Positions 1,265 to 57,148 of a DNA stretch of 64,000 bases are shown piece by piece (positions within the stretch are counted from its first letter, which is position 1; each line of letters starts with the position of its first letter). The position numbers and the translations under genes are program-made. The notes under the pieces are model-generated. The model was not told the DNA's origin and made no database searches. It saw only the letters and a program-made list of their open reading frames with translations. Source of the stretch: Bdellovibrionales bacterium (GTDB lineage Bacteria > Bdellovibrionota > UBA1018 > CAIMNF01). The DNA lies in NCBI GenBank assembly GCA_040380025.1, contig JBEIJY010000001.1:32001-96000 (forward strand). Reading direction: 5' to 3'.

Positions 1265-3076
1265 TCAACGCCGGAAGGGCTTTTTCGGAAGATCATTCCA
1301 CTCTTCCATGCGGGCCAGAATCCCGTCCACGGGGAGGGTTTCGGAGTCTTTCGCGCCGTAGCTCCGGACTGCAAACAAGCCGTCGGCAACTTCACGATCG
1401 CCGGCCACAAGCATGAGCGGAATCTTCGCGATTTGTGCCTCGCGGGTTTTCAGTCCCATTTTTTCGTTCCGGGAATCGATCTCGTACCGAATGCCCCGGG
1501 CGCGGAGTTTTTTCCCCATCTCCTCGCAGTATGGAAGATGCGCATCCGTGATCGGAATGAGGCGGCACTGCACGGGCGCAAGCCAGAACGGGAAAGCCCC
1601 CGCCACGTGTTCGATGTACACGCCCAAAAACCGCTCGAGCGAGCCCAAAACGGCCTTATGGATCACCACCGGCCGGTGGGCCGCATTGTCGGCACCGATG
1701 AAGGAGCAGTCAAAGTTCTCCGGGAGCATGAAGTCGAGCTGGACCGTCGCAAGCTGCCACTTGCGCTTCAGGGCATCTTTGACCTTGATGTCGATCTTCG
1801 GCCCGTAAAACGCGCCGCCGCCGGCATCAATCGCATATTTGCGTCCAGTTCCATCGAGAATCGTCTTGAGCGAGGCTTCGGCGCGATCCCATACTTCATC
1901 CGCGCCCATTCTTTGCTCGGGTCTCGTCGACAAAAAGAGCTCGAGATCGGCAATGTCAAAGCCGAACAGGGTGTAGGTTTTCACGACCATGTCCATGATC
2001 TTCCCGATCTCGGCTTCGACCTGATCGAGGGTGCAATACACGTGGGCATCATCCTGGCAAAAGGTGCGAACGCGCGTGAGCCCCGCCGTTACTCCCGAAA
2101 GCTCGTTCCGGTGGAGTCTTCCGAAATCCGCCAGCCGGAGCGGAAGATCGCGATACGAGCGTTTGTGCGCCGAGAAAATATAAGTCGAAGCCGGGCAATT
2201 CATGGGCTTCACGGCATGTTCGCGGCCATCACCCTTCCCCGCCACACCCTCTTGCACGATGTACATGTTGTCTTTGTAGTGTTCGTAGTGGCCGGATTTC
2301 TTCCAGAGCTCGGTATCGAACACCTGCGGAGTGATCACCTCGTCGTACTCATAGTACTGATACATGTCGCGCACGTATTGGATCAGCCGGTTGTACACGA
2401 TGGCGCCCTTCGGATGAAAAAACGGGCTTGCCGGAGCGATCGCATGGAAGGCGAACAGATCGAGTTCTTTTCCGAGCTTCCGGTGATCGCGCCGCTTCGC
2501 CTCTTCGAGCAGATTCAAATGCTCGTCGAGTTCGACCTGGGTCAGGAATGCCGTCCCGTAGATGCGCTGGAGCATCGGATTCTTCTCGCTCCCCCTCCAA
2601 TACGCCCCCGCAAGCGACATCAGCCGAAAGGCCTTGATCTTCGACGCCCGTTCCAGGTGCGGGCCGCGACAAAGATCGACAAAATCGCCCTCGGTGTAGG
2701 TGCTGACCGAAGTCGCACCGAACTGGCTCCGGAGGGTCTCGATGATCTCGACCTTGTAGGGCTGGTTCATCGAACGAAACTTCTCGATCGCCTCGTCGAC
2801 GGAATGCTCGGCACGCACGAACTTCTCGCCCGCGCCGATGATCCGGTGCATTTCTTTTTCGATCTTTTTCAGGTCATCCGTGGTGAGCTTCACCGGAAGA
2901 TCCACGTCGTAATAAAAGCCATCCTCGACCGTGGGCCCGATTCCGAACTTCGCCTCGGGCCAGAGCTTCCGGATCGCATGGGCCATCACGTGAGCGCAAG
3001 AATGCCTCAAGGTCTCCAGCTCGTTCAACTCGGTCGGTTCGGTGATCTCGTTCAATGCCACATCTTTTTCACTCAT
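1265..3076 (-). CDS. thrS: Threonine--tRNA ligase (short form without the N-terminal TGS domain)
   Basis: LRHSCAH and DLCRGPH editing motifs, RDHRKLG, KPMNCP, GAFYGPKID. ATG at 3076 with AAGGAG upstream. Confidence 0.97.
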   Translation of the reverse strand: MSEKDVALNEITEPTELNELETLRHSCAHVMAHAIRKLWPEAKFGIGPTVEDGFYYDVDLPVKLTTDDLKKIEKEMHRIIGAGEKFVRAEHSVDEAIEKFRSMNQPYKVEIIETLRSQFGATSVSTYTEGDFVDLCRGPHLERASKIKAFRLMSLAGAYWRGSEKNPMLQRIYGTAFLTQVELDEHLNLLEEAKRRDHRKLGKELDLFAFHAIAPASPFFHPKGAIVYNRLIQYVRDMYQYYEYDEVITPQVFDTELWKKSGHYEHYKDNMYIVQEGVAGKGDGREHAVKPMNCPASTYIFSAHKRSYRDLPLRLADFGRLHRNELSGVTAGLTRVRTFCQDDAHVYCTLDQVEAEIGKIMDMVVKTYTLFGFDIADLELFLSTRPEQRMGADEVWDRAEASLKTILDGTGRKYAIDAGGGAFYGPKIDIKVKDALKRKWQLATVQLDFMLPENFDCSFIGADNAAHRPVVIHKAVLGSLERFLGVYIEHVAGAFPFWLAPVQCRLIPITDAHLPYCEEMGKKLRARGIRYEIDSRNEKMGLKTREAQIAKIPLMLVAGDREVADGLFAVRSYGAKDSETLPVDGILARMEEWNDLPKKPFRR

Positions 3077-45637: not shown

Positions 45638-45725
45638 CCTCCTCCCTTCGGTCATCCCGCCTCATTTCTTGAGCCGGAACTACCCCCTTCTAAGTCTCGG
45701 CATTTTTTGCCATACTGGGCCCCTT

Positions 45726-46460
45726 ATGGGAGCACAATGGAAAGCACCGCTTAAAGCGGCGGCCGCCGCAAAAAAGGGCGCCATCATCAGCAAATTGACG
45801 AAAGAACTCATCGTCGCCGCAAAACTCGGCGGGCCGGACCCGGCCTCGAATTTTCGCCTGCGGGGCGCGATCGAGGATGCACGAAAAGCCTCCGTTCCCC
45901 GCGATACGATCGAACGCGCCATCAAGCGCGGCGCGGGTCTTCTCGATGACCCGATCGTATACGAAACCATTTTGTACGAGGGCTTTGCACCCCATCAGGT
46001 TCCCGTAATCGTGGAGTGCCTGACCGAGAACCGGAACCGTACCGCTGCCGACATCCGCGTTGCCTTCCGGAAGGGGCAACTGGGCTCTTCGGGTTCGGTC
46101 GCCTGGATGTTCGACCGCAAGGGAGTGGTCGAAGCCCATCACGGCGATGCCTCGGCCGATCTCGAGGGTGCCGCGATCGAAGCCGGCGCCGATGAAGTGA
46201 CCACCATTCCCGCATCCGAGGGGCAACCCTCGGGCGGCGTGATTGCGCGATTCTTATGCTCCCCGACCGAGTTCGATGCCGTGAACAAGAACCTCTCGGC
46301 CGCGGGCTGGAATGTGCTCAATTCGGAACTGAGCTACCTTGCCAAGAATTTTGTCGATCTTTCTTCGGAGCAGTCGAAAGAAGTCGCGGACTTTTTGAGC
46401 GAAATTGACGACTCCGATGATGTGCACCGGATCTACGTCGCGCTGAAGCCGGGCAACTGA
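45726..46460 (+). CDS. yebC: YebC/PmpR family protein
   Basis: GGPDPASNFRL, IERAIKRG, YEGF, CLTENRNRT, WMFDRKG. Confidence 0.93.
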   Translation: MGAQWKAPLKAAAAAKKGAIISKLTKELIVAAKLGGPDPASNFRLRGAIEDARKASVPRDTIERAIKRGAGLLDDPIVYETILYEGFAPHQVPVIVECLTENRNRTAADIRVAFRKGQLGSSGSVAWMFDRKGVVEAHHGDASADLEGAAIEAGADEVTTIPASEGQPSGGVIARFLCSPTEFDAVNKNLSAAGWNVLNSELSYLAKNFVDLSSEQSKEVADFLSEIDDSDDVHRIYVALKPGN

Positions 46461-48463
46461 CGGGCGATCTCCGGCACGGCTTCGTTCATGAATACCGCCG
46501 TCCACGCCGAACCTGCGGTTTCGGCGGGAGTGGTCGCAAGATAGTTTCTTCCGAACCGTTCCAGAAAGCGCTGATCCAGCTCTGCGAAATTCCGGGCGTG
46601 GAATGCGGCGAGATCTTTCGGACCGAAAAACACCCAGATCCCCTGCCTCATTCCGCGGTTTCGTACGCAGGCCTTCTCGATCTCGTGGGCGACCCGCCCC
46701 ATGGTGTGGCGCACATTCACTTCGATCACGGGCACCACAAAGAGCATTCCGTCCTGATTCCGGGCCACCATCGAATCGATTCCGAATGGTCCGCGGTAGC
46801 CAAGCTCGAACAGGTGCGAAGAAACCCGTTCGTGCACCGGACCCCACTCCCCTTCCTGCTCGCGGATGACTTTTGCCGCCGCATGCAATGATCCTGCGCG
46901 GGCGGGATCTCCCAAAAAAGCACCCTGGTACTGATGCAAATCATCGGTCACAAAAACACGGGGCTCGAAGCGGATCAACTTCCCGACCGCGGTCCACTCG
47001 TACTGGACCGAGAAATCGCATTTCTTTTGATAAAACGGCTCCAGAACGAGCGCGTCCCCCCGAAGGAGGCGTTTTTCGAGTTTTTGAATCGTGGCCGGGT
47101 CCTCGAGCATCGCACGCTCGAGATGCAAATGACCTCTTCCGCTCGTGCCGACCGAGGATTTCACCAAGACCTCTTCCGCTCCGGGGAGCGCATCCGACGC
47201 ACGAGCAAGATCCTCCCGCGTCCGGAGCACGACTCCGGGAGTGCCCAGGAATTCCTTCCAGTACGCTTTCGAATGGAGTTTCTCTGCGGGAAGAGAACGC
47301 GAAAACGTGGGAGGATTCCTTAGTTTCGGGGCAATCGCGTCCAGGCGTTTCCAAGCACCCGGCGAAAACCCCCAGGGCTTGAATTCTCCGAATGCCGGAT
47401 AACGCCGCAATTCCTCGGGCCCCGTGATGATCTCGGGAAGCGCTCCTCGCACCTCGTGAATCCGCCCGGAAAACAAAGCGGATGGCCTTCTCGAAAGTTC
47501 AAGAACATCCTCCTCGCGGGAAAGAAAAATCATCAGCGGCTCCAGATCCACGATCTTTTCGCGAAGGGAGGCCGGAAGCGTCGGCAGGGATGCTTCGATC
47601 TCGCACTGGGGATTGAACCACAAGAAATCAGGAAACCGCCCCCGAGAGCCGCCTGCGACTTTCACTTCTTGAATGAACTCGGCAGAAAGCCCCGCCTCCC
47701 GCCTCGACTCCGCGGCAAACAGGCGCGCTCCTCGTGCGCGCCTGGCCGAGAGCGGAAACGGCAGGGCGGCACGGTAGGCCTCGAAGTCAGATTCGAACCC
47801 GGGATCGCGCCAATGCTGAAACCACTTCCATCCATGCCCCACATGCCGGACTTCGTCGTCATGCACGGCACGGAGGATTCCGGCCGTTTTCGGATCGCCG
47901 ATGCCGCTCTCGAAAAGCGCGGCGTACTCGAGCGCGAAATCGAGATTCGCCTGCTCGAAGGTGAGGCTCATCCGCGCCACAAAATCAAACGGACTTCGAA
48001 TGTCGCGCAGATGGCTCCAAAAGTAGTGATTCAGGGGAACCGCCCCGAAAGGCACCCCGCATTCTTCCATTCTCCCAAGATAACTTCGAAGATGCCTTTG
48101 CTCTTCTTGAAGGATTCCGAATACGCCCTTTTTGAATGCTTCCGGCGCATCCGGAAACCGCAAAAGCACATAGGCCATGGTCTCGATCGCGAGAAGCTCG
48201 TGATTCGCAAAAAAATGAAGAAGTCTTCCCCTCGCCCGCTCATCGCGAAGAAGCTCTGATTTTTTCGGAAACGCCGGGGATGCGCCTTCGATCGCACCAT
48301 GGAACGTGCGCAAAGCGCCGTCACGGCCGGGGGATTCCAGAACATCGATCGGGGAACGTCGATCGAACTCGAGGAATTGATAGGACGCACCCGATCCAGC
48401 CAGCTTGTGACTGAGCGTTCCCCCGAGGAGAATCTCGCGCAAGATCTCGTCACCGGAACCCAT
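46433..48463 (-). CDS. Ferritin-like di-iron (DUF455-like) domain fused to an ATP-grasp domain
   Basis: NHELLAIE, EEQRH, FEQANLD, DEVRH; then VKSSVGTSGRG, VLEPF, GPFGIDSM, EVNVRHTMG. Confidence 0.85.
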   Translation of the reverse strand: MGSGDEILREILLGGTLSHKLAGSGASYQFLEFDRRSPIDVLESPGRDGALRTFHGAIEGASPAFPKKSELLRDERARGRLLHFFANHELLAIETMAYVLLRFPDAPEAFKKGVFGILQEEQRHLRSYLGRMEECGVPFGAVPLNHYFWSHLRDIRSPFDFVARMSLTFEQANLDFALEYAALFESGIGDPKTAGILRAVHDDEVRHVGHGWKWFQHWRDPGFESDFEAYRAALPFPLSARRARGARLFAAESRREAGLSAEFIQEVKVAGGSRGRFPDFLWFNPQCEIEASLPTLPASLREKIVDLEPLMIFLSREEDVLELSRRPSALFSGRIHEVRGALPEIITGPEELRRYPAFGEFKPWGFSPGAWKRLDAIAPKLRNPPTFSRSLPAEKLHSKAYWKEFLGTPGVVLRTREDLARASDALPGAEEVLVKSSVGTSGRGHLHLERAMLEDPATIQKLEKRLLRGDALVLEPFYQKKCDFSVQYEWTAVGKLIRFEPRVFVTDDLHQYQGAFLGDPARAGSLHAAAKVIREQEGEWGPVHERVSSHLFELGYRGPFGIDSMVARNQDGMLFVVPVIEVNVRHTMGRVAHEIEKACVRNRGMRQGIWVFFGPKDLAAFHARNFAELDQRFLERFGRNYLATTPAETAGSAWTAVFMNEAVPEIARQLPGFSAT

Positions 48464-48478
48464 GAGCCGGTCCCGCCC

Positions 48479-48637
48479 TCAGCTGAACCGCGCCTGGTAC
48501 AGCAGGTACAACATGATCACCATGAAGATGACGATCGGAATCTGAAGGATCGCGAACAAAAAGAGCGGGCTTTTTCGCACCGGGACCTGAAAGGAGTCCT
48601 TGGACTTGGTTTCGGGACTTTGCGGGGAATCGCTCAC
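48479..48637 (-). CDS. 52-aa single-pass membrane protein (not in the ORF track)
   Basis: GTG overlaps the permease TGA (GTGA); MSDSPQSPETKSKDSFQVPVRKSPLFLFAILQIPIVIFMVIMLYLLYQARFS; fills the gap between the two genes. Confidence 0.75.
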   Translation of the reverse strand: MSDSPQSPETKSKDSFQVPVRKSPLFLFAILQIPIVIFMVIMLYLLYQARFS

Positions 48638-50433
48638 GCTGCCTGCTTTCTGAGCCGCGAATGGCGGACTCCGTACAGAAAGTATACCGCAAGGCCGGCA
48701 ACAAGCCAGATCCCGAAGCGATACCAGTTCACGATTCCGAGCTCGGTCATGAGGTAAGCGCAGGTCGAGAGCCCGAGAAGCGGAATGAGCGAGAATTCGC
48801 GCAAAAATGCCGCCGCGCCGAGATACACCATCATGAACAAAAAGATCGTGAGCGGAATCCGATGCTTGAAAACTTCAAACCCCGTGGCGCCCGGATTCGC
48901 GGGATCGAAGTTCCCGAGATAATTCAAAAGACTCTCGTACCCGAACTGATGCCAGCAAATCGCAGAAATCAGAACAAGCGCCGGAAAAATCCACTTCGCA
49001 TTGATATAAGGCACATAGAACCGTCCCGGCACACGCTCGCGTCTCGGGTCCTGGCTCAGCACTCCGGCGCAAACGATGGCGAACGCAAAAAGAGTCCCGA
49101 TCGAGGTCAGATCGGTGACCTCCGTCAGGTTCATGAACATGCACGGCACTCCGACGATGAATCCCGCAACAAGCGTCGAGAACCACGGTGTCTTGTACTT
49201 CGGATGGATCGCCGCAAATACGGGCGGCAGGAGCCCGTCCCGGCTCATCGCCATCCAGATCCGCGGCTGACCGAGCTGGAACACCAGGAGCACCGTGAAG
49301 AGCGCAATCACGGCACTGATCGCGATCACGCCCGAAATCCAGTTCACATTCGCGCCTTCAGGTCCGAACACATAGGCGAGCGGATCGCCCACCGAAAGAT
49401 GATCATAACGGACCACGCCGGTCAGAACGAGCGTCACGAGCACATACAGAACCGTGCAAATCAGAAGCGAGTAAATCATGGCCCTAGGCAGGTCTTTTTG
49501 CGGATTCCGGCACTCTTCGGCCGTGGTCGAAATCGCATCAAAGCCAATGTATGCGAAGAAAATCGCCGAGACCCCCTTCATCACCCCCGTGATGCCGTTC
49601 GGGGCGAAGGGAGACCAGTTCTCGGGCTTGACGTACAAGGCCCCGAGCCCTACCACCAAAAGGAGCACAAGAATCTTGAGGGCGACCATCGCATTCGCAA
49701 CGCGCTTTGATTCCTGGATGCCGACATACACGATTGCGGTGACGAGAATGGTCGCGATCACGGCCGGAAAATGAAAAATCAGATGCAACCCGAAGATCTG
49801 GGGAGAACCGGTCCAGGCCTCATAGCCGTGAACCGAGGCGAGGGACAGACCTGTTGCTTGCAGATCGGTAAAGGCGACTCCCGAGTCGAGCGCGGCTTTC
49901 ACTTGCTCATATCCGCGCGAAGCCGAGAGGAGATCCATCGTAAGCCAGGAGGGCATGTGGATTCCGTACCCCGAAAGAAGCGAGTTCAGATAATCGCCCC
50001 AAGAGATCGCCACCGCGATGTTTCCGATCGCGTACTCCATGAGCAAATCCCAACCGATGATCCAGGCCAGAAGCTCGCCCAAAGAGGCATAGGCGTACGT
50101 GTAGGCCGATCCCGCCACCGGAATGCGCGAGGCGAATTCGGCGTAACAGAGTGCCGAGAACGCGCAGGCGATCGCGGTGAACAAGAACAAAAAAACCGTG
50201 GCGGGTCCGCCATTCGAGGCGGCGGTTCCCACGGTCGAGAAGATTCCTGCCCCGATCACGGCGGCGATTCCGAGCGAAGTCAGATCCCAAACCCCGAGAG
50301 TCCGTTTCAGTCCTTCGGGAAGCGAGCCTCCGTGCGCAGAACTGTGTGCCGGACTGTGTGCCGAACCCTCCACCGTGGCCTCGACTAAAATCTGCGGAAT
50401 CGGCTTCGTACGGAACAAAGATTTCCATGACAT
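48634..50433 (-). CDS. APC-family (cationic amino acid transporter-like) permease
   Basis: GAGIF, CYAEFASRIPVAGSAY, AWIIGWDL, FFAYIGFDAIST, GQPRIWMAMSRDGLLP. Confidence 0.94.
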   Translation of the reverse strand: MSWKSLFRTKPIPQILVEATVEGSAHSPAHSSAHGGSLPEGLKRTLGVWDLTSLGIAAVIGAGIFSTVGTAASNGGPATVFLFLFTAIACAFSALCYAEFASRIPVAGSAYTYAYASLGELLAWIIGWDLLMEYAIGNIAVAISWGDYLNSLLSGYGIHMPSWLTMDLLSASRGYEQVKAALDSGVAFTDLQATGLSLASVHGYEAWTGSPQIFGLHLIFHFPAVIATILVTAIVYVGIQESKRVANAMVALKILVLLLVVGLGALYVKPENWSPFAPNGITGVMKGVSAIFFAYIGFDAISTTAEECRNPQKDLPRAMIYSLLICTVLYVLVTLVLTGVVRYDHLSVGDPLAYVFGPEGANVNWISGVIAISAVIALFTVLLVFQLGQPRIWMAMSRDGLLPPVFAAIHPKYKTPWFSTLVAGFIVGVPCMFMNLTEVTDLTSIGTLFAFAIVCAGVLSQDPRRERVPGRFYVPYINAKWIFPALVLISAICWHQFGYESLLNYLGNFDPANPGATGFEVFKHRIPLTIFLFMMVYLGAAAFLREFSLIPLLGLSTCAYLMTELGIVNWYRFGIWLVAGLAVYFLYGVRHSRLRKQAA

Positions 50434-50504
50434 TGGCTTGACGCCCTCCCTGAAAACAGTATGATTGCGAGTCGGGATTGAACACCAATCGGGAGATTTT
50501 CACA

Positions 50505-52097
50505 ATGGCAAATCTGTTCCAAAAAAAGGACCTCGCAAAACTGATTTCAGATGCGGGAGATCCGAACGCGTCCGAACACGCTCAAGGTGCGGGAACCTTG
50601 AAGCGGCACCTGACCGCACTGAACCTGACCCTGCTCGGCGTGGGCGGCATCATCGGAGCCGGGATTTTCTCGCTGACCGGCATCGCGGCGGCGAACTACG
50701 CCGGCCCCGGAATCGTGTTCAGCTTCATCATCGGAGGCATTCTTTGCGCCTTCGCAGGGCTTTGTTATGCCGAAATGGCGGCCATGGTGCCTGTCTCGGG
50801 CTCGGCTTACGCCTACTCCTACGCGACCCTCGGCGAACTCGTGGCGTGGATCATCGGCTGGGACCTGATTCTCGAATACGCATTCGGCTCGGTGACTGTT
50901 GCGGCGGCCTGGTCCGGATATTTCGTCTCGCTCTTCCAGAAAACCCTCGGAATCGAAATCACCGATTCCATGCTCCGGCTCACCAAGGGGCCCTGGGAAA
51001 TGGTCACGCTTGCCGACGGAAGCATGGTTCACGGAATCTGGAACCTTCCGGCCAGCGTAGTTGCCATCATTGCCGGCCTGATTCTGTACAAGGGCATCCG
51101 CGAGAGCGCGACCGTGAACAATCTGGTCGTGGCGATCAAACTTGCGATCATCCTCTCGTTCATTGCGATCGGCTGGGGCGTGATTGATTCGATGAACTGG
51201 CAGGCGAACCCGAACGCGACGGGGCTCATGGGGTTTGTTCCCGAAGTCGCCGAATCCATGCGGAACGGCGAATCGATTCTGAGCTTCGGCTGGCCGGGAG
51301 TCCTGACCGGCGCGGGAGTCGTGTTCTTTGCTTACATCGGCTTCGATGCCGTTTCGACCACCGCCCAAGAGGCGAAGAATCCGCAGAGGGATCTGCCGAT
51401 CGGAATTCTCGCATCGCTCTTCATCTGCACTGCGATTTACATCCTGATGGCGCTCGTGATGACCGGCGTGGTTCCGTATCGCGAACTCGGGGTACCCGAT
51501 CCGGTTGCGGTCGGAGTGGATCGGATCGTGAGCCTGCGCGGCTGGAGCCCGGGAGCCCAGCACACCCTCTCGTTTGCGGTGAAGCTCGGGGCCCTCATGG
51601 GACTCACCTCGGTGATCCTCGTGCTCATGCTCGGACAAACGCGGATTTTTTACGCCATGGCGAAAGACGGGCTTCTTCCCTGGTTTGATCAGGTTCATAA
51701 GGTGTTCCACACTCCGCACAAGGCCACGACGATCACGGCCTTGTTTGTCGCGGTTTGTGCGGGCTGCATGCCCATGAGCCTTGTCGGGGAGCTGGTTTCG
51801 ATCGGCACCCTGCTCGCCTTCGTTCTGGTGTGCGTGGGCGTGGTGATTCTCAGAATCAAGTCACCCGAAACCCCGAGACCCTTCAAAACCCCGCTCTTCT
51901 GGTTTGTCGGTCCCGCAGGCGCACTCTCGTGCCTCTGGGTGATGTCGAGCCTGCCGCGCGACACGTGGATCCGTCTTGCTGTGTGGCTTGTGATCGGATT
52001 CGTGGTTTATTTTGCCTACGGCATCCACCATTCCAAGCTCAGAAAGAATTCCGGACATGGCCTCCCGTCTTACCCCGAAGCAAAAGCAGACACTTGA
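50505..52097 (+). CDS. APC-family (cationic amino acid transporter-like) permease, divergent paralogue
   Basis: RBS GGGAG; GAGIF, CYAEMAAMVPVSGSAY, FFAYIGFDAVST, GQTRIFYAMAKDGLLP; upstream TTGACG-N16-TATGAT. Confidence 0.94.
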   Translation: MANLFQKKDLAKLISDAGDPNASEHAQGAGTLKRHLTALNLTLLGVGGIIGAGIFSLTGIAAANYAGPGIVFSFIIGGILCAFAGLCYAEMAAMVPVSGSAYAYSYATLGELVAWIIGWDLILEYAFGSVTVAAAWSGYFVSLFQKTLGIEITDSMLRLTKGPWEMVTLADGSMVHGIWNLPASVVAIIAGLILYKGIRESATVNNLVVAIKLAIILSFIAIGWGVIDSMNWQANPNATGLMGFVPEVAESMRNGESILSFGWPGVLTGAGVVFFAYIGFDAVSTTAQEAKNPQRDLPIGILASLFICTAIYILMALVMTGVVPYRELGVPDPVAVGVDRIVSLRGWSPGAQHTLSFAVKLGALMGLTSVILVLMLGQTRIFYAMAKDGLLPWFDQVHKVFHTPHKATTITALFVAVCAGCMPMSLVGELVSIGTLLAFVLVCVGVVILRIKSPETPRPFKTPLFWFVGPAGALSCLWVMSSLPRDTWIRLAVWLVIGFVVYFAYGIHHSKLRKNSGHGLPSYPEAKADT

Positions 52098-55560: not shown

Positions 55561-56352
55561 ATGCAAGCACTCGAATCCCGTCCCGGTCCCATCCGGATTT
55601 ACAGGCGCATGGAGCCGTTTGTCCCGATGTCGGTCGAAAACTCGCGTTACCTTCTGAAGACCGTCGACCAGACCTCCGAGCTGAAAGAAGTCATGCAGCT
55701 CCGTGCCCGGGTGTTTTCGGCCGAATACGGCGCAAAAAGCGCCTCAGGCGGGCTCGACATCGATCCCTTCGACTTTCACTGCGATCATCTGGTGATCGTC
55801 GAAAAATCTTCGGGCACCATCATCGGAACCTATCGGGTTTTGTGCTCGCGGTTCACCGCGAACTTCTACTCCGAGACGGAATTCGAACTGGGAGATTTTT
55901 TGCGCGCTCCCGGCACCAAGATCGAACTGGGGCGGGCCTGCATCGAACCCGCCCATCGACGGGGAATCGTACTCAGCCTTCTTTGGCGGGGAATCCTGCG
56001 CTATGCGCTCGAGACCCGCGCGGATTATCTCTTCGGATGCTCGAGCATCAAGACCATCGACCCGGCGGAAGCGAGGCTCCTTCACGATCAGCTCGCCGGC
56101 GCCGGATCCGTTTCGACAGAGTGGAAGGTCGATCCGGTCGAAAAACACCGAATCAACGGGTTCGCCTCGATTCGTCCGAAAGAGGGCGTTCCCACCGCCG
56201 AGATCCCGCCTCTTTTGCAAAGCTACCTGAATGCCGGAGCGAAGATCCTGGGCGAGCCCGCGCTCGATCTTGATTTCCGGTGCGTAGACCTCCTGACCGT
56301 CCTGAAACTGACCGACTTGAACCGGACCCATGAGAAATTCCATCAGATTTGA
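55561..56352 (+). CDS. GNAT-fold N-acyltransferase, OlsB-like
   Basis: LRARVF..E, DIDPFD..CDHLV, GTYR, FYSETEF, ELGRACI, LLW, IPPLLQSYL..GAK..GEPALD.DF. Confidence 0.88.
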   Translation: MQALESRPGPIRIYRRMEPFVPMSVENSRYLLKTVDQTSELKEVMQLRARVFSAEYGAKSASGGLDIDPFDFHCDHLVIVEKSSGTIIGTYRVLCSRFTANFYSETEFELGDFLRAPGTKIELGRACIEPAHRRGIVLSLLWRGILRYALETRADYLFGCSSIKTIDPAEARLLHDQLAGAGSVSTEWKVDPVEKHRINGFASIRPKEGVPTAEIPPLLQSYLNAGAKILGEPALDLDFRCVDLLTVLKLTDLNRTHEKFHQI

Positions 56353-57148
56353 CCAGACGATCCGGTTTTCGAGGATGGCGGTGCTCGTTCTGGAGTTTTT
56401 CGTCACGGCCTCGGTCGAACATCTCATGCTCGGACTCAGCCGGAGCGGTCGCGAACAGCTCCCGCGCAAAAAAGCGCTCCGAATCGGCCGCTACTCGAAG
56501 CGCGCTCTTGCCATTCTCGGAGTTCGCGTCGACTACGACCGGAACACCCGCCCCTTTCCGGGCGGAGGCATGATGGTCTGCAATCATGTTTCGTACCTCG
56601 ATATTCTGGTGCTCTCTTCGCAGATTCCGGCGCTTTACATCACCTCAGTCGAGACCGGATCGGCCGGCTGGATCGGGGCCTTGTGCCGGCTTGCCGGATG
56701 CCTTTTTGTCGAACGACGAAAAGTGACCGCGCTCAAGAAAGAAGTCTCCGAGATCGACTCGGCTCTGAAAAACGGGGTGCCGGTGGTCTTGTTCCCCGAG
56801 GCGACTTCATCGGATGGCCGGGATGTGCTGCCCTTCCGATCTTCTCTTTATGAGTGCGCTCTGCAAGCCCGGGCGCCGATTCACTCCTTTTGCATTCACT
56901 ACACTCCCGAAGACAACGGAGTTCCCTATTACGGCGAGATGACGATCCTGCCGCATCTGTTCGCCATTTGCGACGGACGCTCGAGAACGGCGCATCTCGA
57001 ATTCCTTGACACGATCGAGCCCTCCGATACCCTTGAACGGAAGGCGGCCGCGCGAACCACCCGCTTTCAGATCCGGCAGGCATATGTTTCGAGAATGGGA
57101 AGAGCTCCAGAAGATCAAGTCCGGCCTGAGTCCGCACTGCAGGCGTGA
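56330..57148 (+). CDS. Lysophospholipid acyltransferase family protein (OlsA/PlsC-like)
   Basis: NHVSYLD (HX4D), FVER, FPEATSSDG..VLPF. Confidence 0.9.
   Translation: MRNSIRFDQTIRFSRMAVLVLEFFVTASVEHLMLGLSRSGREQLPRKKALRIGRYSKRALAILGVRVDYDRNTRPFPGGGMMVCNHVSYLDILVLSSQIPALYITSVETGSAGWIGALCRLAGCLFVERRKVTALKKEVSEIDSALKNGVPVVLFPEATSSDGRDVLPFRSSLYECALQARAPIHSFCIHYTPEDNGVPYYGEMTILPHLFAICDGRSRTAHLEFLDTIEPSDTLERKAAARTTRFQIRQAYVSRMGRAPEDQVRPESALQA

Follow-up and report, generated by a model that had tools for sequence, protein, structure and literature searches.

What might a single protein chain that joins a di-iron domain to an ATP-grasp ligase do in a bacterial cell? This question is raised by a 64,000-nucleotide stretch of Bdellovibrionales bacterium DNA (contig JBEIJY010000001.1, positions 32,001 to 96,000 of the forward strand; hereafter, the window, in whose own coordinates all features are given), where one gene (46433..48463, minus strand) encodes a protein of 676 amino acids (aa), denoted P0001, that consists of a DUF455 di-iron domain and a PGM1-type ATP-grasp ligase. 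A preliminary description of this locus, made from the sequence alone, interpreted the protein as a two-step enzyme that oxidizes and then ligates a substrate possibly imported by the product of an adjacent permease gene. The analysis presented here leads to the conclusion that the fusion is real and widespread and probably represents a two-step enzyme, the parts of which are known families; the pairing of the two domains stands, whereas the oxidation-first order is doubtful and the connection to the permease turned out to be local.

The fusion protein and its two domains

The reading frame of P0001 runs through 676 codons with zero internal stops, and both motif sets are found where the preliminary description had placed them, in one chain: HELLAIE at position 88, EEQRH at 120, EQANLD at 170 and DEVRH at 203 in the di-iron domain, and KSSVGTSGRG at 435, EPF at 475, GIDS at 561 and EVNVR at 581 in the ligase. 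Origin of the fusion through a frameshift artifact can be dismissed: in a protein search (7999 candidates scored, 1500 passing E 0.001, the best 120 examined for both motif sets), 112 of the 120 best homologs carry both sets in a single chain. The AlphaFold2 model of P0001, built from a 52-sequence alignment, is a single compact two-domain unit (pLDDT 94.4, pTM 0.92) with no evident membrane segment. Scans of the DNA for promoters and terminators yielded chance-level results only.

The N-terminal domain (aa 1-273; 47645..48463, minus strand) matches the Pfam DUF455 model (PF04305) over aa 67-265 with a score of 137.5 bits, the gathering cut-off being 34.3, and the same model is matched by all 52 aligned fused members. 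The domain is predicted to form a four-helix bundle (helices 75-102, 108-134, 158-188 and 191-218) with the ligand pattern E/ExxH/E/ExxH. The predicted metal ligands E89, E121, H124, E170, E204 and H207 are invariant in 52/52 aligned fusions; across the fused, split and free forms taken together, E89, E121, E170, E204 and H207 are present in 114 of 114 sequences and H124 in 113 of 114, with H83 and H88 likewise invariant in all 114. The ferritin-like ligand set proposed previously is thus present at the expected places, except that the helix-1 ligand is most likely E89 rather than E94, because of spacing and alignment: E89 is located 32 residues ahead of E121 and aligns with the Glu of the HIE/NIE motif in other DUF455 proteins as well as with the NCE Glu of 8fhc, an entry labeled MiaE. 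Furthermore, nine positions of the domain are at least 85% Lys or Arg.

The structural matches of this domain are tied (Z 13.3-14.3) among Dps-like proteins, the MiaE-labeled 8fhc and aldehyde-deformylating oxygenase (ADO) entries, and therefore the fold picks no single function; the ligands and the fold point to a probable oxidase that uses O2. The MiaE model PF06175 produced zero matches at E up to 1 in P0001 and the 52 members, and the profile match of 8fhc to P0001 reached an E-value of 0.47 only. N-oxidation of the AurF type, one of the activities initially considered, is not favored because the position of the extra His ligand of AurF/CmlI, which we take to lie one turn ahead of the last ExxH, is not conserved (V200 occupies position -4, and H201 falls short of 90% conservation). 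The invariant H88, beside E89, could be a candidate for a third His elsewhere in the site.

The C-terminal domain (aa 275-676; 46433..47641, minus strand) folds over aa 276-671 as ATP-grasp peptide ligases (Foldseek E 4.6e-12), with the closest match to 3wvr (Z 29.1, rmsd 3.1 over 358 aligned residues), followed by 8ynd (Z 26.8), BesA (24.7), LdmS (23.8) and then PurK (~20); 3wvq/3wvr, titled 'ATP grasp protein', are presumably structures of PGM1. At the profile level, P0001 matches 8ynd, a Streptomyces ATP-grasp peptide ligase, with an E-value of 5.7e-5. Weak matches to PreAtp-grasp (PF18604) were detected in 12 of the 52 members (best E 7.7e-5), and P0001 itself gave no match to PreAtp-grasp or PGM1_C. 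The residues K399, K435, G442, E475, D563, E581, N583 and R585 are invariant in 52/52 aligned fusions, so that the ATP-grasp assignment holds with regard to motifs, fold and conservation alike. By analogy with LdmS and from what is generally known of the fold, these residues can be assigned putative roles as two ATP-binding lysines, a glycine loop, a hinge Glu, an Asp and the ExNxR motif. The published account of LdmS describes a route via an acyl-phosphate and then an amide (PMC9486568), and the ligase domain of P0001 should, by analogy, follow the same route. Judging from these residues, both domains look catalytically intact.

In the databases, the fusion protein is labeled 'DUF455 family protein'; the name 'rhamnosyl transferase' in Atlas is an automatic label without support. 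A literature search yielded neither a paper on the DUF455/ATP-grasp fusion, in agreement with the earlier statement that no characterized member is known, nor a published function of DUF455, with subscription papers, supplements and a 2009 amidoligase survey, all of which may mention the architecture, lying outside the search.

Fused, adjacent and separate forms of the pair

A genome scan retrieved 584 relatives, of which 80 were kept; the titles of the latter are mostly Verrucomicrobiota and Bdellovibrionota, and 73 of these 80 loci contain a complete ligase in the same frame. Protein names add Deltaproteobacteria to this range, and Atlas adds Myxococcota. The fusion usually occurs once per genome. 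Among viral sequences, 89 pattern matches included zero relatives.

In family f20, the two domains are encoded by separate genes. A strong DUF455 match on a gene of ~275 aa was found in 39 genomes of this family, and in 37 of these, the ligase gene follows on the same strand within ~1 kb (in one of the remaining two, the ligase is located at the start of another contig, and the other lay outside the comparison). Each split half is homologous to its fused counterpart (hhalign E 1.7e-87 and 5.7e-33). The ligase-paired DUF455s comprise one clade in a 47-row tree (support 100/99), marked by the motif ANHE, in contrast to ANIE or AHIE in lone DUF455s. Within this clade, the f20 genes are nested among the fused ones and hence appear to result from a secondary split, after which the halves were kept together. 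Another adjacent pair (L219) forms the basal branch of the clade. Because the domains are thus kept together across lineages, whether fused or adjacent, they likely belong to one pathway, and we consider it highly probable that they are coupled in function.

In the examined genomes, the ANHE domain came with the ligase, and the ligase also occurs without the ANHE domain in anaerobes; the free genes of the ANHE type carry Planctomycetota names, and ligases on their own are frequently found in Planctomycetota and Bacteroidota. Three Bacteroidales records encode the ligase, with no match to DUF455 in these partial genomes (0.16-1.77 Mb), and no DUF455 over the cut-off was detected in 14 control genomes, including Bacteroides thetaiotaomicron. 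The Bacteroidales ligases group with the fused ones (SH-aLRT 99 in a quick, unfinished tree). The presence of the ligase in anaerobic Bacteroidales in which DUF455 was not found therefore suggests that ligation is the core reaction and oxidation an optional tailoring, which renders the initially proposed order of oxidation followed by ligation doubtful.

Two additional forms of DUF455 were observed. A second, short DUF455-like protein (174 aa) is encoded on contig C18 of the genome to which the window belongs, directly downstream of an EVE-domain gene (L082:1462-1986(-), 1959-2585(-)); such short forms are present in most genomes of the class that includes the window, where MiaE was not found, and might be a MiaE stand-in. 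A further architecture is represented by proteins of 440-550 aa, in which the DUF455-like domain is at the C-terminus and the N-terminal half has no Pfam match (L254:2619-3953, L255:2611-3930 and L256:2317-3975).

Gene neighborhoods, the proposed reaction and its rivals

Comparison of 80 + 38 loci revealed no neighbor that different lineages share, and among the neighbor clusters, carrier proteins, precursor peptides and exporters do not recur (very short precursor genes below the open reading frame cut-off of 60-70 aa were not looked for). Genes involved in RNA metabolism and translation, namely, a Suv3-type helicase, yebC, deaD, trpS and tyrS, recur beside the gene in separate lineages. An ~890-aa Suv3-type DEXQ helicase (PF22527) is encoded upstream of the split pair at 20 of the 20 f20 loci (L131-L150). 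In the window, yebC (TACO1/YebC family; 45669..46460, plus strand) is arranged tail-to-tail with the fusion gene, with a 28-nt overlap; the tail-to-tail arrangement is found also in three kin, and yebC is located directly upstream in L060 and L064. The genes deaD, trpS and tyrS each adjoin the gene at single loci. In the sister clade of lone DUF455s with the ANIE motif (L237-L249), 10 of 13 loci show DUF455 and yebC in a head-to-head arrangement (yebC being Pfam-checked for L237 only), often near genes for an RNA pseudouridine synthase, a QueD-like protein and SufE, which can be considered a lead that DUF455 acts on RNA. In literature abstracts, YebC is reported as a translation factor.

The best overall explanation that we can offer is that the fusion is a stand-alone, single-copy modification enzyme that would perform two coupled steps on one substrate made by the cell itself. 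In the first step, as predicted from the fold and the residues, the ATP-grasp domain would activate a carboxylate, probably that of an amino acid, as an acyl-phosphate and join it to an amine; in the second step, the di-iron domain, with O2 and electrons supplied from outside, would hydroxylate or otherwise oxidize the product. Ligation would be the core step and oxidation its aerobic tailoring, the reverse of the order envisaged originally; this pattern of a core step followed by tailoring is the one known from EpmA/EpmC and MiaAB/MiaE. The most likely acceptor would belong to the translation machinery, either a tRNA nucleoside or a protein. We assign this explanation as a whole, with ligation first and a translation-related acceptor, a probability of roughly 0.4. 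A more specific version is rather unlikely as it stands: in Bacteroidota, Planctomycetota, Verrucomicrobiota, Bdellovibrionota and their relatives, a tRNA or a protein of translation would receive from the ligase family an amino-acid-linked modification not described so far, and the ANHE-clade DUF455 would hydroxylate this modification in the aerobes among them. If true, an ATP-grasp enzyme would be responsible for a novel modification of RNA or protein, and DUF455 would have its first function.

MiaE, the hydroxylase of ms2i6A37 in tRNA, is present in 55 of the 201 genomes surveyed for it and is absent from the lineage of the window and from f20; it was not found in the genome to which the window belongs. 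Across the 201 genomes, hardly any family combines MiaE with DUF455, a pattern that follows lineage. A role as a stand-in for the modification of EF-P can be discarded because the genome of the window contains an EpmA-like motif, a KamA/EpmB-family gene and efp, and therefore has no EF-P modification gap to fill.

Several observations weigh against a translation-related ligase-first enzyme. MiaE and the fusion co-occur in four of the six fused f16 genomes, and hence, the enzyme is neither just another MiaE nor a plain substitute for it. The distribution of the fusion is patchy, with fused genes in 18 of 201 Bdellovibrionota genomes and in 5 of 151 Verrucomicrobiota genomes (sampled around Haloferula). 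The quick, unfinished ligase tree sets the f20 ligases apart from the fused ones, possibly a misplacement caused by biased composition. The helicase of f20 produced no tblastn match at 1e-4 in the genome of the window and so is not an obligatory partner. The translation-related neighbors are common genes, each found in one or two lineages, and many other neighbors are unrelated. Peptidases recur too, with an M28 aminopeptidase encoded two genes upstream in 14 of the 20 split loci. Finally, the four closest solved ligases all act on small molecules or short peptides.

The latter two observations fit a different scenario, which we consider possible although doubtful, where the product of the pair would be a dipeptide or another small amino-acid conjugate that carries one hydroxylated or oxidized residue and that a peptidase may release or recycle. 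All the closest folds (3wvr, 8ynd, BesA and LdmS) are compatible with such a product, and LdmS is a core-genome dipeptide ligase (L-Asp-L-Met) encoded in an operon with hmrA (PMC9486568). In addition, an M24 peptidase gene follows the fusion in L074, and in L173, L183 and L186, the gene immediately upstream of the lone ligase is amide-hydrolase-like. These last cases, however, are just 3 of the 30 upstream genes scanned, and no exporter or other tailoring gene recurs across the compared loci. Both the RNA/translation theme and the amide-hydrolase theme are weak, resting on common genes and few independent lineages.

It is improbable that the fusion is a frozen accident in which each domain serves a purpose of its own, such as the handling of iron or peroxide on the one hand and an independent ligation on the other. 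Each half does exist alone: other DUF455 clades come without a ligase match (in f19, DUF455 is present in 20 of 22 genomes and the ligase in 0 of 22), and there is no DUF455 in the available DNA of 73 of 80 metagenome ligase loci, many of which are short. Nevertheless, the paired DUF455s form a clade of their own, the adjacency outlived the split across the whole family f20, and L219 represents a second adjacent pair at the base of the clade.

Still less probable is the tailoring of an amino-acid-containing membrane lipid, whereby the ligase would attach an amino acid to the carboxylate of a lipid, to be hydroxylated by the di-iron domain. Amino-acid lipids are typical of Bacteroidota and Planctomycetota, where the lone ligases occur, and 7 kb away in the window, a GNAT (Acetyltransf_5/FeeM) gene is paired with an acyltransferase gene (55561-57148, plus strand) in what we take to be the layout of the ornithine-lipid olsBA genes. 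However, the model of P0001 shows no evident membrane segment, and no acyltransferase cluster recurs near the gene at the compared loci.

The fusion gene is preceded in the window by genes for a CAT/BcaP-like APC amino-acid permease of 599 aa (48634..50433, minus strand), as recognized previously, and for a family-restricted 52-aa protein with one hydrophobic stretch (48479..48637, minus strand). The close packing described for these genes is borne out by the sequence: the 52-aa frame starts at a GTG that overlaps the stop codon of the permease gene (GTGA), and 15 nt separate the stop of that frame from the fusion ATG. The microprotein is real as well: of the 116 genomes of the order, 16 encode it, and these belong to a single family. 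At these 16 loci, the permease precedes it in 13, a AAA gene follows it in 13, and the fusion directly follows it in 2, the only genome besides the window with this arrangement being that of L273. The gene order in the kin is permease, microprotein, MoxR-like AAA, vWA and then the fusion, and the window is devoid of the AAA and vWA genes. A permease within ~8 kb of the fusion is found at 2 of 80 genome loci and at 5 of 17 additional loci with the fusion, each of them in the genus of the window (the two sets overlap among close kin), and at 0 of 20 split loci. The linkage of permease and fusion is therefore a local, genus-level synteny and not a conserved operon, and the microprotein is not a required part of the enzyme system. 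The model in which the permease imports a substrate for oxidation and subsequent ligation and the microprotein plays an accessory part draws on the gene coupling and on L273 and is highly improbable, being largely refuted as a general rule by these counts, by the AAA gene that usually follows the microprotein and by three genomes (G138, G166 and G032) that have the microprotein with no match to the fusion.

Next to this permease gene is a second, divergent APC permease gene (539 aa; 50478..52097, plus strand), so that two CAT/BcaP-like permease genes are located back to back (48634-52097) with a very short intergenic region, an arrangement kept in the genus. The best solved match of the CAT-type permease that adjoins the 52-aa single-helix protein is 5oqt/6f34, presumably GkApcT. 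That transporter was crystallized with a single-helix partner, MgtS (PMC5803215). The 52-aa protein may be a native accessory subunit of the permease or may belong with the AAA/vWA pair.

Implications and comparison with known systems

The finding that a clade of DUF455 is tied to one ligase family opens a route to its function: the product of the ligase would be sought first, and then the action of the iron domain on it. The ligase occurs alone in gut Bacteroidales, for example, in Parabacteroides distasonis (WP_122246558.1), which makes a study combining knockout and mass spectrometry feasible. Such work would reveal either a novel modification of tRNA or protein or a widespread amino-acid conjugate that is likewise new.

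Among the known systems, the DUF455 domain resembles MiaE, ADO and AurF in being a four-helix bundle with the E/ExxH/E/ExxH pattern and differs from them in belonging to the distinct ANHE clade, with no Pfam match to MiaE. BesA and BesC are an ATP-grasp ligase and a di-iron oxidase of alkyne amino-acid biosynthesis; the likeness extends to the fold of BesA (Z 24.7) and to a di-iron oxidase working with an ATP-grasp ligase. BesC, however, is a heme-oxygenase-like oxidase encoded by a separate gene within the cluster, whereas P0001 has a ferritin-like DUF455 domain fused to the ligase and is not part of a recurring cluster.

PGM1, the pheganomycin peptide ligase, shares with P0001 the whole three-part ligase fold (Z 29.1) at 18% identity. 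The PGM1 gene belongs to an antibiotic cluster, and its product attaches a non-proteinogenic amino acid to a short peptide (PMC8939145). In contrast, P0001 has its ligase fused to DUF455 and is encoded by a stand-alone gene, and at the 80 + 38 loci, neighbors of the kind expected in a product cluster with a precursor peptide do not recur, within the size limit on precursor genes given above. Cluster-type PGM1-like ligases were also encountered (L154, on the Clostridium acetobutylicum plasmid pSOL1, and L130:3257-4615); the pSOL1 ligase gene adjoins genes for an acyl carrier protein, a radical SAM protein, an oxidoreductase and an MFS transporter, apparently a small biosynthetic cluster.

LdmS (SAOUHSC_02373) is an L-Asp-L-Met ligase encoded in the core genome outside any product cluster (PMC9486568). 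It differs from P0001 in being limited to Firmicutes and in having no oxygenase domain, with a sequence identity of 13%, and resembles it in the ligase fold (Z 23.8) and in acting as a core-genome ligase outside a product cluster.
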